Below, in pieces: positions 1,966 through 6,596 of a stretch of 27,422 nucleotides of DNA. Numbering within the stretch: the first letter of the stretch is position 1; every line of letters begins with the position of its first letter. The stretch covers positions 1 through 27,422 of the forward strand of contig JAXDKX010000017.1 of the NCBI GenBank assembly GCA_034666905.1, in the 5' to 3' direction. Source of the stretch: Chloroflexota bacterium (GTDB taxonomy: Bacteria; Chloroflexota; Limnocylindria; Limnocylindrales; CSP1-4). Position numbers and translations under genes: made by a program. The notes below the pieces were generated by a model. The model was not told the origin of the DNA. It worked only from the letters and a program-made list of their open reading frames with translations, and did not search any database.

Positions 1966-2646
1966 ATGAGCCTCATCCCCGGCCTCGGAATCGTCAGCGG
2001 GATGGCCCTGACCCTGCGCAAGTTCTTCCAGCCCAAGGTCACGGTCATGTATCCCGAGGTCCGGGTGGACCCGCCGCACAAGTTCCGCGGGCGCCTGCAG
2101 CTGCTCTACGACGAGTGGGGCACGCTGAAGTGCGAGACCTGCTTCCAGTGCGCCCAGGCCTGTCCCATCGAGTGCATCGACATGGGCGGCATGGATACGC
2201 GCGGCCGCTATCACGTCCATTGGGGCGCGCCCGAGACATACGGGGAGCGGCGCGAGGAATCGGCCCTCCGTCGATCCGGCCGGACCGTGCCGGACCCTGC
2301 CTATCTGCCGTTCGCGCCGATCGACCTGGCACCGGTCAATACGATCCTCGAGCAGTTCGACCACGATCCGGCCCACATGCTCGAGATCCTCGAGGCGACC
2401 CAGGCGGCCTATGGCTACCTGCCGGTCGCATCGCTCAAGCGGATCAGTCAGCTCACCGGGGCGTGGTACGCGATGATCTACGGCACCGCGAGCTACTACG
2501 CCCACCTCCGGTTCGAACCGCCGACCGCGACGATCCAGGCGGCCGCGGTCGAGGCGCACCGGCCGTCCGAGGCCACCTACCTGATCGCCTTCGACACGGC
2601 GCTGGCCGGGAGCGGCGAGCGCCCGAAGCCGCAGGCCCAGGCCTGA
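1966..2646 (+). CDS. Chimera: NuoI N-terminal half (one CxxCxxCxxxCP motif) fused to NuoE N-terminal helical domain, no [2Fe-2S] domain (226 aa)
   Basis: Residues 1-70 are NuoI-like (TLRKFFQPKVTVMYPE...KFRGRL...KCETCFQCAQACP, 2131-2166). Residues ~119-186 are NuoE-like (VNTILEQF...MLEILEATQAAYGYLP..SLKRISQLTG...IYGTASYY.HLRFEP). No Cys after residue 70. Confidence 0.85.
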   Translation: MSLIPGLGIVSGMALTLRKFFQPKVTVMYPEVRVDPPHKFRGRLQLLYDEWGTLKCETCFQCAQACPIECIDMGGMDTRGRYHVHWGAPETYGERREESALRRSGRTVPDPAYLPFAPIDLAPVNTILEQFDHDPAHMLEILEATQAAYGYLPVASLKRISQLTGAWYAMIYGTASYYAHLRFEPPTATIQAAAVEAHRPSEATYLIAFDTALAGSGERPKPQAQA

Positions 2647-2650
2647 ACCG

Positions 2651-3976: not shown

Positions 3977-3983
3977 GGCGACC

Positions 3984-6596
3984 ATGGCTGACCTGATCAC
4001 GCGCCCCGACACCGACGCCCGCGCAATGGAGCCAGAGACGCTCGTCGAGCGCCTGCTGGAAACCCAATCGCCGCAGCGGCCCCAGTCGTCGCCGCGCATC
4101 CGGATCGAGGTCGACGGCCGCGTCATCGAGGGATTCGAGGGCCAGACGATCCTCGAGGTCTGTCGTGACAACGGGATCGAGATTCCGACGCTGTGCTACG
4201 AACCGAAGCTGCCCGGCTTCGGGGCCTGCCGGATGTGCGTCGTCGAGGTCGAGGGCGAGGAGCACCCGCCAATCTCGTGCTCGCGTCTGTGCGAGCCCGA
4301 GATGAAGGTCCAGACCCAGACAGAGGAAGTCCGCCGCCTTCGTCGGACCAACCTCGAGCTGATCTTCTCCGACCACAACGCGTACTGCCTGCCGCCCTGC
4401 CAGAACAAGTGCCCGAGCCACATCGACATCCCGGGCTTCCTCAAGGCCAACGCAGAGGCCGACTGGCGGGAGTCGACGCGGATCTTCAAGCGGACGATCC
4501 CGTTCCCGAGCGTCCTTGGACGCGTCTGCCCGGCCCCGTGCGAGGAGCACTGCCGGCGCGACGAGGTGGACGAGGCGATCGCAATCCGCGACAGCCATCG
4601 CTACGCCGGCGACCAGGTCATCAAGTCGATGCTGGACGAGGGCGTGGATCCGCCGCTCCCGTTCGAGCGGCAGGCGCCGTCGGGCCGCCGGGCGGCCGTC
4701 ATCGGCTCCGGTCCGGCCGGCATGAGCGCCGCGTTCTACCTGCTGCTCGCCGGCCACGACGTGACCGTGTTCGAGCGCGATCCGGCACCCGGCGGGATGC
4801 TCCGCTACGGGATCCCGCAGTACCGGCTGCCCAAGATCGAGGTCCTCGAGGCCGAATACGAGTCCGTCACCAGGCTCGGCGGCAAGATGGTCTGCAACAG
4901 CGCGCTCGGTGTCGATTTCGGCCTGGACGACCTGGTCAACCAGGGCTTCGACGCCGTGGTCGTGGCGACCGGCTGCTACGAGACGAACAAGCTCGGCATC
5001 CCGGGCGAGGACGCGGCGGAATGCCTCGACGGGCTCGAGTACCTGAGGACGGCGACCCTGGGCCTTCCCTACCCCAACCACGCCGGCAGGCGCGTGGTGG
5101 TGATCGGCGGTGGGTTCACCTCGATGGACTGCTCGCGGACCTCCATCCGCCAGGGGGCGAAGGAAGTCACCCTGGTCTATCGCCGCGACATGAAGGACAT
5201 GCCCGCCTCGAACGAGGTCCACGAAGCGATCGAGGAAGGCGTCACCGCCATCTTCCAGGCCGGGCCGGTCCGGGTGATCGTGGACGACGCAGGCAAGGTC
5301 ACCGGCGTCGAGTTCATTCGCATGGCCCCCGGCGCGCCGGACGCGTCCGGACGACGCCGGCCCGAGCCAGCGCCGGGCACCGAGTTCACGATCCCGTGCG
5401 ATCGGGTCCTGCTGGCCATCGGCCAGGGCCCGGACCTGACCTGGATCGGCCCAGGCTCCGAGGGACCGGAAGCCACGAAGCAGCGCCGGCTGAAGGCGGA
5501 CGCGGTGACCTTCGAGACGGGCCGTCCCGGCGTCTTCGGGACTGGCGATGTCCGGGTCGGCGCGGCCACCGTGGTCCAGGCGATCGCCGAGGGACGGCGG
5601 GCCGCGTACGCCGTCGACGCCCACCTCAAGGGCCTCGACCTGTCGGTGATCCGGACTCGCCAGACCCTGGCCGAGCCACAGCCCGAGTTCCTCTCGATCG
5701 TGCCGTTCACCAGCGAGATCAAGGCGCCGCGCTACCGGATGACCGCGCTCGAGGCCGAGCAGCGCAATCACAGCTACATCGAGTACGAGCTGCCCTACAC
5801 GCGCGAGGAGGCCGTCGCCGAGTCGACCCGGTGCCTCCAGTGCACGTGCGAGGCGATCGGCTTCTGCGATCTCCGTCGCCTGGGCATCGAGTACGGGACC
5901 ACGCTCCAGACCCTGGAGCCGCAATTCAACTCGGGCGCCGGCTATCGGAGCGTCACCGAAAACCGGTTCACCGGCACCAATCACGACTACATCCGCGACG
6001 ACTCGCATGCCTTCATCCTGCGCGAGCCGTCACGCTGCATCGACTGTGGCCGCTGCGCCCAGGTCTGCTCCGAGGTGGTCGGTGCGGCCTGCTACGACTT
6101 CATGCGGATCGGGTTCGACTCGCTGGTGACCACACCGCTCGACATGAGCCTGAACGACACGCCGTGCGTGTCCTGCGGGCGCTGCGCCGAGACGTGCCCG
6201 ACGGGCGCGCTCATGCCCAAGCCGCGCGTCCTCCAGAAGTACGAGGTGGACGAGAGCCGCTGCATCCTGTGTGGCATCTGCGTGGACGCCTGCCCGTACG
6301 ACGCGCTGCGAGACGGGGCGGACATCGAGCTGTCGCACACGAGCCGCGACGAGCCGATGATCGACCTCATGGCCATCGCCGCGATCGATCGCGAGACGGA
6401 GGTCACGTATATCCGGCGCGAGCGCGACTGGGCGTCACGGGCGGCGGCCGCGGGCCGGATCGTCGACACTGCCCGGATGCTGCCGATGCTGCCCCCGACG
6501 ATCGGCGGGATCGCCGGCAACGGGAACGGCCATGGCCACGCCCATGGCAACGGTCACGGCGGCGGGACGGCCATCGCACCCTCCCACCACGAGTAG
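3984..6596 (+). CDS. Multidomain flavo-Fe-S protein: NuoG/HydA-type [2Fe-2S] domain + GltD-like FAD/NAD(P)H oxidoreductase + 2x[4Fe-4S] + NuoI C-terminal half (870 aa)
   Basis: IPTLCY..GACRMCVVE..ISC ([2Fe-2S]); PPCQNKCP and GRVCPAPCEEHCRR (GltD clusters); IGSGPAG (FAD); IGGGFTSMDC and VYRR (NADPH-type); RCIDCGRCAQVC and CVSCGRCAETCP; then an unpaired KYEVDESRCILCGICVDACPYDAL..G.DIELS motif (6261-6296). No H-cluster or Mo-bisPGD domain. Confidence 0.85.
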   Translation: MADLITRPDTDARAMEPETLVERLLETQSPQRPQSSPRIRIEVDGRVIEGFEGQTILEVCRDNGIEIPTLCYEPKLPGFGACRMCVVEVEGEEHPPISCSRLCEPEMKVQTQTEEVRRLRRTNLELIFSDHNAYCLPPCQNKCPSHIDIPGFLKANAEADWRESTRIFKRTIPFPSVLGRVCPAPCEEHCRRDEVDEAIAIRDSHRYAGDQVIKSMLDEGVDPPLPFERQAPSGRRAAVIGSGPAGMSAAFYLLLAGHDVTVFERDPAPGGMLRYGIPQYRLPKIEVLEAEYESVTRLGGKMVCNSALGVDFGLDDLVNQGFDAVVVATGCYETNKLGIPGEDAAECLDGLEYLRTATLGLPYPNHAGRRVVVIGGGFTSMDCSRTSIRQGAKEVTLVYRRDMKDMPASNEVHEAIEEGVTAIFQAGPVRVIVDDAGKVTGVEFIRMAPGAPDASGRRRPEPAPGTEFTIPCDRVLLAIGQGPDLTWIGPGSEGPEATKQRRLKADAVTFETGRPGVFGTGDVRVGAATVVQAIAEGRRAAYAVDAHLKGLDLSVIRTRQTLAEPQPEFLSIVPFTSEIKAPRYRMTALEAEQRNHSYIEYELPYTREEAVAESTRCLQCTCEAIGFCDLRRLGIEYGTTLQTLEPQFNSGAGYRSVTENRFTGTNHDYIRDDSHAFILREPSRCIDCGRCAQVCSEVVGAACYDFMRIGFDSLVTTPLDMSLNDTPCVSCGRCAETCPTGALMPKPRVLQKYEVDESRCILCGICVDACPYDALRDGADIELSHTSRDEPMIDLMAIAAIDRETEVTYIRRERDWASRAAAAGRIVDTARMLPMLPPTIGGIAGNGNGHGHAHGNGHGGGTAIAPSHHE
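6516..6566 (+). repeat. Low-complexity Gly/His/Asn coding tract (GNGNGHGHAHGNGHGGG)
   Basis: Direct translation of the tail of the 870-aa ORF. Confidence 0.8.

Follow-up and report, generated by a model that had tools for sequence, protein, structure and literature searches.

Where is NuoI encoded in this complex I locus? NuoI (TYKY/NDUFS8) is a core subunit of complex I, and the window analysed here, a stretch of 27,422 nucleotides from a fragmented Chloroflexota MAG (434 contigs, 78% complete), contains only half of its sequence at the expected gene position. A preliminary description of the locus had proposed that an electron-input cassette sits inside nuoI and is fused in frame to both halves. 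We favour, with a probability of about 0.72, the reading that the sole complex I of these genomes has a NuoI ferredoxin (N6a/N6b) that would be assembled in trans from two polypeptides, P0001 and P0003, and would wire in a non-bifurcating NADPH/NADH module; this reading draws on sequence comparison and structure prediction. The features of the locus are as follows.

2..595, + strand: 3' end of nuoD (contig begins within the gene); PF00346 Complex1_49kDa, E 1.7e-67
615..1955, + strand: nuoH; PF00146, E 6e-104
1966..2646, + strand: P0001, 226 aa, NuoI N-half fused to the NuoE/BfuC N-terminal helical domain
1999..2196, + strand: NuoI N-half, profile positions 1-65, with the NuoI-specific N-terminal segment and motif; TIGR01971, E 4.3e-13
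2131..2166, + strand: motif C56-x2-C59-x2-C62-x3-C66-P of P0001, within the NuoI N-half
2194..2295, + strand: P0001 linker, residues 77-110, RYHVHWG...ERREES..RRSGR.VPD, strongly conserved (many invariant alignment columns)
2338..2526, + strand: NuoE/BfuC N-terminal helical domain, without the [2Fe-2S] thioredoxin-like domain; PF01257 positions 2-64/145
2651..3976, + strand: P0002, 441 aa, NuoF/BfuB-like flavoprotein core
3984..6596, + strand: P0003, 870 aa, NfnA/StnB-like A subunit fused to the NuoI C-half; 9bov_A, E 2e-159, residues 39-770
4095..4322, + strand: P0003 [2Fe-2S] domain (A1/N1b-like), residues 38-113; PF13510, E 2.8e-19; C71, C82, C85 and C99 invariant
4386..5633, + strand: P0003 GltD-type module, residues 135-550, Fer4_20 Fe-S domain plus pyridine-nucleotide oxidoreductase fold; PF14691, PF07992; TIGR01318/TIGR01316
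5832..5867, + strand: P0003 motif C617-x2-C620-x-C622-x5-C628, invariant in 57/57 orthologues; aligns with NfnA
6036..6200, + strand: P0003 A-subunit 2x[4Fe-4S] ferredoxin domain, motifs 1 (C685..C695) and 2 (C728..C738-P); aligns with NfnA, HydA and HoxU
6225..6365, + strand: NuoI C-half, profile positions 71-116, motif C760-x2-C763-x2-C766-x3-C770-P, then ..IEL.. segment; TIGR01971, E 1.7e-10
6516..6593, + strand: P0003 Gly/His-rich C-terminal tail (GNGHGHAHGNGHGGG...HHE), from sequence; partly conserved in the P0003 alignment
6606..7199, + strand: nuoJ; PF00499, E 1.1e-31
7199..7507, + strand: nuoK; PF00420, E 2.5e-25
7504..9462, + strand: nuoL; PF00361 and PF00662
9282..11135, + strand: nuoM (true start probably near 9460); PF00361
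11054..12610, + strand: nuoN; PF00361

The gene nuoH follows nuoD directly, with no NuoEFG genes at the canonical nuoD-nuoH site. From the end of nuoH (1955) to the start of nuoJ (6606) the genes, starting at 1966 for P0001, 2651 for P0002 and 3984 for P0003, are separated by gaps of 4-10 nt. Together the two halves occupy the nuoH-nuoJ slot of NuoI, the N-half beginning 10 nt past nuoH and the C-half stopping 9 nt short of nuoJ, with 4.13 kb between their motifs. The coordinates of both reading frames and the positions of their cysteines (C56/C59/C62/C66-P67 in P0001, C760/C763/C766/C770-P771 in P0003) agreed with the preliminary description. Gene picking by longest open reading frame was dropped in favour of tblastn coordinates, because at approximately 70% G+C spurious antisense frames render it unreliable.

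Profile searches with the fragments assigned residues 12-77 of P0001 to positions 1-65 of the NuoI family TIGR01971 (E 7.7e-14) and residues 748-794 of P0003 to positions 71-116 (E 6.6e-11), with NuoI as the top-ranked family for the P0003 fragment. This complementary coverage bears out the earlier claims that the gene at the nuoI position encodes the first half of NuoI and that the 870-aa protein ends in the missing half. A scan of the whole source genome returned these same two regions of P0001 (4.3e-13) and P0003 (1.7e-10) as its best NuoI matches, and no protein in it passed the family cut-off; the halves scored 49.7 and 41.3 bits versus a cut-off of 113.05, the two motifs lying on separate polypeptides. 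The flanks are also those of NuoI, with its N-terminal segment preceding the first NuoI motif on P0001 and its trailing segment following the second NuoI motif on P0003. Each half was matched by NuoI and TYKY chains in the PDB, the C-half by the C-halves of those chains. The eight NuoI cysteines, together with C70, were invariant among 79 species orthologues of P0001 and 57 of P0003, save for one aberrant row, and the loss of ligands at homologous loci that the preliminary description had considered was thus not encountered. An alignment of both halves to three intact Chloroflexota NuoI proteins with MAFFT was discarded, given that the C-half landed on motif 1 as a result of the internal pseudo-symmetry of the fold; the half boundaries were instead taken from HMM coordinates and from reading of the sequences by eye.

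The cassette flanked by these halves descends from the Bfu/Nfn family. All three of its proteins matched NfnABC (9bov) and StnABC best in the PDB comparison, P0003 with 9bov_A (E 2e-159), P0002 with 9bov_B (9.5e-105), and the E part of P0001 with 9bov_C. Residues 39-770 of P0003 align with 9bov_A 4-699 and 8oh5_C 3-701 and include the GltD insert of the NfnA/StnB type, and P0003 carries the [2Fe-2S] domain (PF13510) and ferredoxin-type 4Fe-4S (Fer4) domains of a BfuA subunit. The C-terminal formate-dehydrogenase-like (MopB) domain was undetected in P0003, the chain of which stops 100 residues past motif 3. The GltD insert interrupts a NuoG/HydA scaffold, and the C617..C628 motif probably completes the His-type [4Fe-4S] cluster of that scaffold. 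The GltD module is presumed to bind FAD and NAD(P)H and, by homology, may be specific for NADPH.

Two earlier claims required revision. The continuation of P0001 into NuoE holds for the N-terminal helical domain; the rest is missing, PF01257 being matched over positions 2-64 of 145 only, and P0001 has no cysteine beyond C70 and is therefore without the [2Fe-2S] cluster, C1, of BfuC. Similarly, the E-F-(G/GltD) cassette does consist of three genes fused at both ends, and its descent is from Bfu/NfnABC, not NuoEFG; measured against a canonical N-module, E has no cluster, F is one Cys short, and an NfnA-like protein replaces G. P0002 is without the N-terminal and C-terminal Fe-S domains of BfuB, the chain finishing at the CPAGVC site with no 2x[4Fe-4S] domain (B3/B4) beyond it. 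Its B1/N3 site, CGK[T/S]IPC, has three cysteines, the second ligand being the one missing, and its FMN/NADH motif is NGYGADP in place of NADEGDP; these derived motifs are themselves conserved. Given the derived motif and the three-Cys site, NADH input may be defective, and F may have in part a structural function. The more distant relatives P0250, P0251, and L105 retain C1, and the progression from full BfuC/BfuB relatives to forms without C1 and then to forms also short of the B1 cysteine may be read as a degeneration series. The Limnocylindria version, having lost C1 together with one B1 cysteine and the ferredoxin domains of BfuB, most likely works as a simple NAD(P)H:quinone oxidoreductase that does not bifurcate.

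Insertion of the cassette into nuoI is plausible, although its direction is unproven, given that the half-bearing cassette also adjoins nuoB or nuoD or sits between porA and porB. The split ferredoxin might instead be a connector that belongs to the cassette itself, formed by the start of the C subunit and the end of the A subunit and plugged into various enzymes, which displaced NuoI in the Nuo context without any break of a resident nuoI. This alternative leaves the present-day mechanism the same as does assembly in trans and differs in history and generality alone. It is favoured by a 1.17 Mb contig on which porA and porB enclose a complete BfuC-BfuB-BfuA(GltD) cassette with both halves, a complete porD being kept as well; this placement is repeated in genome G006. 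Both Por-context halves scored best as NuoI in profile comparison, and this family has 276 relatives. Other Chloroflexota also carry the half-bearing cassette beside nuoB or nuoD, outside the nuoH-nuoJ slot. However, the NuoI-specific N-terminal segment (profile positions 1-35) is present in the Nuo-context N-half and missing from the Por-context half, which fits an origin in NuoI followed by redeployment, and we consider the connector history rather doubtful. As a tentative generalization, the unit [half-ferredoxin(N)::BfuC]-BfuB-[BfuA/GltD::half-ferredoxin(C)] could be a portable split 2x[4Fe-4S] plug that docks an NAD(P)H module on unrelated Fe-S enzymes, namely complex I, where the plug is NuoI, and 2-oxoacid:ferredoxin oxidoreductase, yielding in Limnocylindria an NADPH-driven proton-pumping complex I. 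In a closed 5.07 Mb genome from another family, the half-bearing cassette adjoins nuoB and a second set, nuoA-C-D-H, is without nuoB and nuoI, which implies that the cassette functions in trans with nuo genes there too. Dehalococcoides Por-Bfu and Mbh-Bfu were also considered as sharing this split and were rejected, their BfuC homologues having no half-ferredoxin.

Do the two halves meet? Motifs 1 and 2 of P0003 have their counterpart in the alignment in the ferredoxin domain of the A subunit (NfnA, HydA), and motif 3 is located where NfnA begins its formate-dehydrogenase-like domain (with a MopB-type CxxCxxxC motif), leaving motif 3 an orphan, as had been claimed. A complex prediction for P0001 and P0003 gave ipSAE values of 0.54, 0.50, and 0.49 (best control, 0.00), rated by the tool as 'weak support', with the caveat that the predictor may reproduce ferredoxin folds it has memorised; the contact was placed between residues 35-82 of P0001 and 747-819 of P0003, with motifs 1 and 2 uninvolved. 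The C-terminal motif thus scored best as the NuoI C-half and was modelled against the N-half, contrary to a failure that the preliminary description had allowed for. Were the halves never to meet, motif 3 would pair in cis with motif 2 or use other ligands, the N-half would be a one-cluster or cluster-less membrane-docking remnant, and N2 would be reached without the canonical N6a/N6b pair. Pfam Fer4_7 can indeed be fitted as a dicluster domain to residues 728-774, which span motifs 2 and 3, and the 32-residue spacing of these motifs is ferredoxin-like. We nevertheless regard pairing in cis as very improbable: motifs 1 and 2 align as a pair with the NfnA/HydA/HoxU domain, at its characteristic spacing of approximately 42 residues, the best profile score for motif 3 and its flanks is for the NuoI C-half, the model sets this region against P0001, and C66-P67 of the N-half is invariant even though it would be left without a cluster to ligate.

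The order nuoH-[I_N::E]-F-[A::I_C]-nuoJ, sought in other genomes, was found in all 80 Limnocylindria loci with sufficient flank, on contigs of up to 2.9 Mb, as part of a conserved operon nuoA-B-C-D-H-[I_N::E]-F-[A::I_C]-J-K-L-M. The database contains 2942 relatives, and the architecture occurs in at least 337 species genomes, multi-megabase contigs included. This recurrence in independent assemblies excludes the assembly chimera against which the earlier proposal had been hedged. Nor was an intact nuoI found that serves these genomes: none was present in the source genome (78% complete) or in five relatives of 3.3-3.8 Mb, each with a single nuoH, and of 121 genomes of the class 118 had none. 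The remaining 3 of the 121 do contain an intact nuoI, and in four genomes of other families searched it occurred only alongside a second, canonical nuo operon. The split-NuoI complex therefore appears, by gene content, to be the sole complex I of these genomes. That the locus reflects artefact or decay (a chimera, a mis-called frame, or a degenerating, non-working complex I) is scarcely credible, for although the source MAG is fragmented and incomplete and the F-subunit motifs are non-canonical, those motifs are conserved, every reading frame is open, the genes are tightly packed, and the architecture recurs in the numbers given above in what appears to be the only complex I. The hosts are soil Chloroflexota, and the carrier group is common in environmental metagenomes, judging by MAG titles.

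In the favoured reading of assembly in trans, the N-half (residues ~1-110 of P0001) would hold one cluster through three ligands and lend the other its fourth, and the C-half (residues ~745-835 of P0003) would contribute the complementary four cysteines. Such three-plus-one sharing of ligands between motifs is textbook ferredoxin chemistry. The N-half is fused covalently to the NuoE/BfuC subunit through the latter's helical docking domain and the C-half to the end of the A subunit, at the exact site of the formate-dehydrogenase-like domain of NfnA; the input module might in this way be locked onto the membrane arm as a ring (I-N/E :: F :: G/GltD/I-C). The FAD of the GltD insert would accept electrons from NADPH, and the FMN of F possibly from NADH; these would travel via the A-subunit clusters and the 2x[4Fe-4S] domain of that subunit to the rebuilt N6a/N6b, then to N2 in NuoB and finally to quinone, while NuoH and NuoJ-N would pump protons. 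The invariant cysteines and the predicted interface are consistent with binding of N6a/N6b and electron transfer to N2. As no other complex I is apparent, respiratory electron entry in these bacteria, and perhaps proton pumping driven directly by NADPH, would depart from the textbook enzyme. If true, the placing of the NuoI two-cluster fold on two polypeptides would be, to our knowledge, an undescribed way to build the N6a/N6b relay and a natural precedent for split Fe-S domains as assembly staples. This arrangement was described nowhere in the literature covered by a non-exhaustive search, which took in split NuoI, the complex I of Limnocylindria, and later work on Nuo-Bfu.

The split subunit resembles canonical NuoI/Nqo9/TYKY (NDUFS8) in its position between nuoH and nuoJ, in its two CxxCxxCxxxCP motifs, and in the segments that precede them (N-terminal) and follow them (..FEL/IEL..), but is divided after profile position ~65 onto two polypeptides approximately 4.1 kb apart, each fused to another protein. 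NfnABC of C. saccharolyticus (9bov; PMC11829005) and StnABC of S. ovata (8oh5; PMC10482914) are soluble Bfu-family transhydrogenases that bifurcate at [B1-FMN-C1]. P0003 shares the [2Fe-2S] - GltD insert - Fe-S layout of their A subunit over residues 39-770, whereas the Limnocylindria cassette has no C1 and no BfuB terminal Fe-S domains, its B1 is one Cys short, the NuoI C-half replaces the formate-dehydrogenase-like domain of NfnA, and its genes lie inside a nuo operon. Schut et al. 2022 (PMC9304861) predicted for Deferribacteres, Proteobacteria, Planctomycetes, and Nitrospirae a 14-subunit Nuo-Bfu (A-N) whose BfuBC core bifurcates, in an account of Nuo-Bfu in which NuoI has 0 occurrences and fusions are unmentioned. 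As in that prediction, a BfuABC module here takes the place of NuoEFG as the input to a proton-pumping complex I and is encoded midway through the nuo cluster. Dehalococcoides-like genomes differ in having a plain BfuC with no half-ferredoxin. Degli Esposti 2015 (PMC4758237) described mbx-like operons with a gltD-related flavoprotein at the NuoI position, NuoI being said to be substituted. Here, too, a GltD-type flavoprotein for NAD(P)H is joined directly, at the NuoI slot, to a membrane module resembling that of complex I, but, compared with those operons as described in PMC4758237 alone, the present locus keeps both NuoI halves, fused to cassette subunits. The locus also links soluble bifurcating Bfu/Nfn enzymes to complex I by visible steps, which bears on how the N-module of that complex was recruited.

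The contig, which constitutes the entire 27.4 kb window and belongs to a metagenome-assembled genome of 2.33 Mb (434 contigs, 78% complete), carries the following complex I genes with an intergenic spacing of 4–10 nt:

2..595, + strand, 3' end of nuoD
615..1955, + strand, nuoH
1966..2646, + strand, P0001 (226 aa), NuoI NH2-terminal half fused to a NuoE/BfuC part (I_N::E)
2651..3976, + strand, P0002, NuoF-like (F)
3984..6596, + strand, P0003 (870 aa), NfnA/StnB-like A subunit with a GltD insert, fused to the NuoI COOH-terminal half (A::I_C)
6606..7199, + strand, nuoJ
7199..7507, + strand, nuoK
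after nuoK, + strand, nuoL, nuoM and nuoN

P0001 contains one CxxCxxCxxxCP motif (C56/C59/C62/C66-P67) and P0003 contains three, the third being C760/C763/C766/C770-P771; the coordinates and residue numbers in the preliminary description were exact for both proteins. In profile searches, residues 12–77 of P0001 corresponded to positions 1–65 of the 121-position NuoI model TIGR01971, a match that covers the NuoI-specific segment 5' of the first motif, and residues 748–794 of P0003, searched as a fragment, corresponded to positions 71–116 (E 6.6e-11). NuoI was the top-scoring family for this COOH-terminal fragment. Among NuoI/TYKY chains in the PDB, the NH2-terminal half matched the P0001 fragment and the COOH-terminal half the P0003 fragment. 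Motifs 1 and 2 of P0003 aligned together with the 2x[4Fe-4S] domain of NfnA, HydA and HoxU, and motif 3 occupies the position at which, in NfnA (9bov_A), the formate-dehydrogenase-like domain has the start of its CxxCxxxC motif. Given that motifs 1 and 2 pair as in these proteins and that NfnA has CxxCxxxC at that place, motif 3 is an orphan, which bears out the earlier assignment. The claim that P0001 turns into NuoE held for the helical N-domain (PF01257 positions 2–64 of 145) and failed for the [2Fe-2S] domain, which is missing. In intact NuoI, motif 2 is preceded by a short strand (ERYARVFDVN), of which both halves apparently have a copy: GRYHVHWG closes the first half (window 2194–2220) and QKYEVDES opens the second (6225–6260). 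These copies may represent a duplicated junction.

Relatives of P0001 numbered 2942 in a set of 5.8 billion proteins, and a gene for one was present in at least 337 species genomes; almost all of the genomes fetched from among these bore the title Chloroflexota, Limnocylindria or Limnocylindrales. The order H-[I_N::E]-F-[A::I_C]-J, which the preliminary description had proposed to look for elsewhere, recurred in all 80 of the fetched loci whose flanks were long enough, preceded by nuoA-B-C-D, and several loci with the fused genes lay on contigs of 2–2.9 Mb. All eight NuoI Cys residues, together with C70, were invariant among 79 P0001 and 57 P0003 orthologues, with the exception of one aberrant row that deviates at every Fe-S Cys and is probably a frame error. 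Residues 77–110 of P0001, immediately after the NuoI half, were also nearly invariant. No intact nuoI was detected in five relatives of 3.3–3.8 Mb, each of which has one nuoH and just the two halves, ~4.2 kb apart. In a class sample of 121 genomes (118 of them ≥90% complete and ≤5% contaminated), intact nuoI was present in three, and in none of the 44 genomes of the window's family. In a phylum sample, each of the 45 genomes belonging to the class had the fused I_N::E gene. Given the recurrent gene order, the invariant Cys residues and the near-absence of intact nuoI, an assembly chimera or chance arrangement, as well as a separate intact nuoI serving this complex, are ruled out as far as can be judged at the sequence level. 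The fused I_N::E gene is also kept, at 66–68% identity, in four genomes of the same order (G139, G275, G315 and G363; family f2) with a size of just 1.1–1.4 Mb and a completeness of 91–93%.

To gain insight into whether the halves meet, we predicted a complex of P0001 with residues 655–870 of P0003 and four [4Fe-4S] ligands. The ipSAE values were 0.54, 0.50 and 0.49, compared with 0.00 in all three controls, and the prediction tool itself graded the complex as 'weak support'. The confident interface joined residues 35–82 of P0001 to residues 747–819 of P0003, so that the NH2-terminal half contacted the motif 3 region, not motifs 1 and 2, as had been anticipated. C66-P67 and C770-P771 are both invariant, and each would lack a cluster to ligate if its partner half were absent. 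Combined with the way in which the two profile matches complement each other, these results support, without proving, assembly in trans. We estimate a probability of about 0.7 for a ferredoxin assembled in trans with the general electron path.

The best match of all three cassette proteins was NfnABC of Caldicellulosiruptor (9bov), a transhydrogenase of the Bfu family. P0003 matched the A subunit over residues 39–770 (2e-159), P0002 matched the B subunit (9.5e-105) better than respiratory NuoF (8e-82), and the E part of P0001 matched the C subunit. StnABC (8oh5) and archaeal Nfn-Bfu (9n5u) were the runners-up for the A subunit and were also among the top matches for the B and C parts (identities of PDB entries from PMC11829005 and PMC10482914). 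The bifurcation site of such enzymes is [B1-FMN-C1], and BfuB has terminal Fe-S domains (PMC11829005, PMC10482914). Cluster C1 is absent from the E part of P0001, as are both BfuB terminal Fe-S domains from P0002. The B1 motif of P0002, CGK[T/S]IPC, lacks the second Cys of B1/N3, and its FMN/NADH motif is NGYGADP as opposed to NADEGDP; other derived motifs (window 2651–3976) are GAYMLGEET, NVQT and LCDHE in place of LCGxG. These states are conserved across 71 orthologues. The B1 Cys is lost solely in family f3 and the family of the window, whereas f4, f28 and f46 have CGKCVPC. The His/Asp beside the last Cys may act as a replacement ligand. The BfuB-type Zn (B2) site, C...H...CPAGVC (C332, H419, C425–C430; window 3644–3940), is present in 51 of the 71 orthologues and lost en bloc in the other 20 (C332 replaced by D, CPAGVC deleted). 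The module is thus Bfu-derived and, given the missing cofactor sites and altered FMN/NADH motif, very probably not bifurcating; electrons may enter mainly at the GltD-type FAD/NAD(P)H site, and the F subunit may be partly structural. For the E-F-(G/GltD) cassette of the preliminary description, the best matches thus revise the descent to Bfu/Nfn, with the bifurcation features lost. P0003 ends in a Gly/His-rich tail (GNGHGHAHGNGHGGG...HHE; window 6516–6593) that is partly conserved among orthologues and could bind metal.

More distant relatives (27–34% identity to P0001) carry the I_N::E fusion in differing gene orders. The closed 5.07 Mb genome G171 (of another family, f28; loci L099, L103 and L106) has an operon nuoB-[I_N::E]-F-[A::I_C] at 0.95 Mb and a second set, nuoA-C-D-H, at 4.40 Mb from which nuoB and nuoI are missing. 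Intact nuoI is present in this genome at a separate, canonical nuo locus; no nuoJ-N was found adjoining either part of the scattered set. In G331, of the same class, nuoB-D-[I_N::E]-F-[A::I_C] and nuoC-H-J-L-M-N lie on different contigs. P0250, P0251, L087 and G006 retain a full NuoE with four Cys, and G006 additionally retains the BfuB-type N-terminal domain. This distribution suggests a stepwise loss of bifurcation features, from full C1 through loss of C1 to loss of the B1 Cys in the window's lineage. In the f3 genome G040, of the same class, a single open frame of 1268 aa apparently comprises both F and A (L100:8113-11916), suggesting an F::A fusion in that lineage; ~1.6 kb between A and nuoJ has no assigned gene, and the thioredoxin-like domain of the E part is retained, with a CDCAAC motif seen in it and no second Cys pair.

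A paralog of the cassette, likewise bearing both half-ferredoxins, was found between porA and porB, in the order porG, porD (complete), porA, [half(N)::BfuC], BfuB (complete), [BfuA/GltD + motifs 1–3::PorB] (L105:5796-13919, on a 1.17 Mb metagenome contig; also loci L097 and L090 of G006). In profile searches, both halves scored best as NuoI despite the complete porD, and the NH2-terminal half was without the NuoI N-terminal segment. Relatives of this family number 276, and some of them carry the label Thermoleophilia; the BfuC of Dehalococcoides-like genomes is plain. Given that the same halves occur in the Nuo and por contexts, the split pair is a travelling feature of the cassette. The split may have arisen by insertion into nuoI, as proposed in the preliminary description and as favored by the NuoI-specific N-terminus that the half has in its Nuo setting, or else as a connector borne by the cassette.

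Profile coverage, conservation and gene order thus confirmed that the NuoI halves reside on two fusion proteins, and the central proposal of a ferredoxin rebuilt in trans is supported, as refined by the Bfu/Nfn identity, the lost bifurcation features and the portability of the cassette. Our literature searches, in an incomplete library, turned up neither a split NuoI nor an account of Limnocylindria complex I. In mbx-like operons, a gltD-like flavoprotein is located at the NuoI position (Degli Esposti 2015, PMC4758237). 'Nuo-Bfu' complexes with BfuABC in place of NuoEFG have been predicted in other phyla (Schut et al. 2022, PMC9304861), in a text in which neither NuoI nor fusions are mentioned. 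The present system belongs to this known kind, in which complex I has an alternative input module of the Bfu type, and adds to it the split NuoI, with the new structural principle being a core ferredoxin subunit rebuilt out of two fusion proteins.
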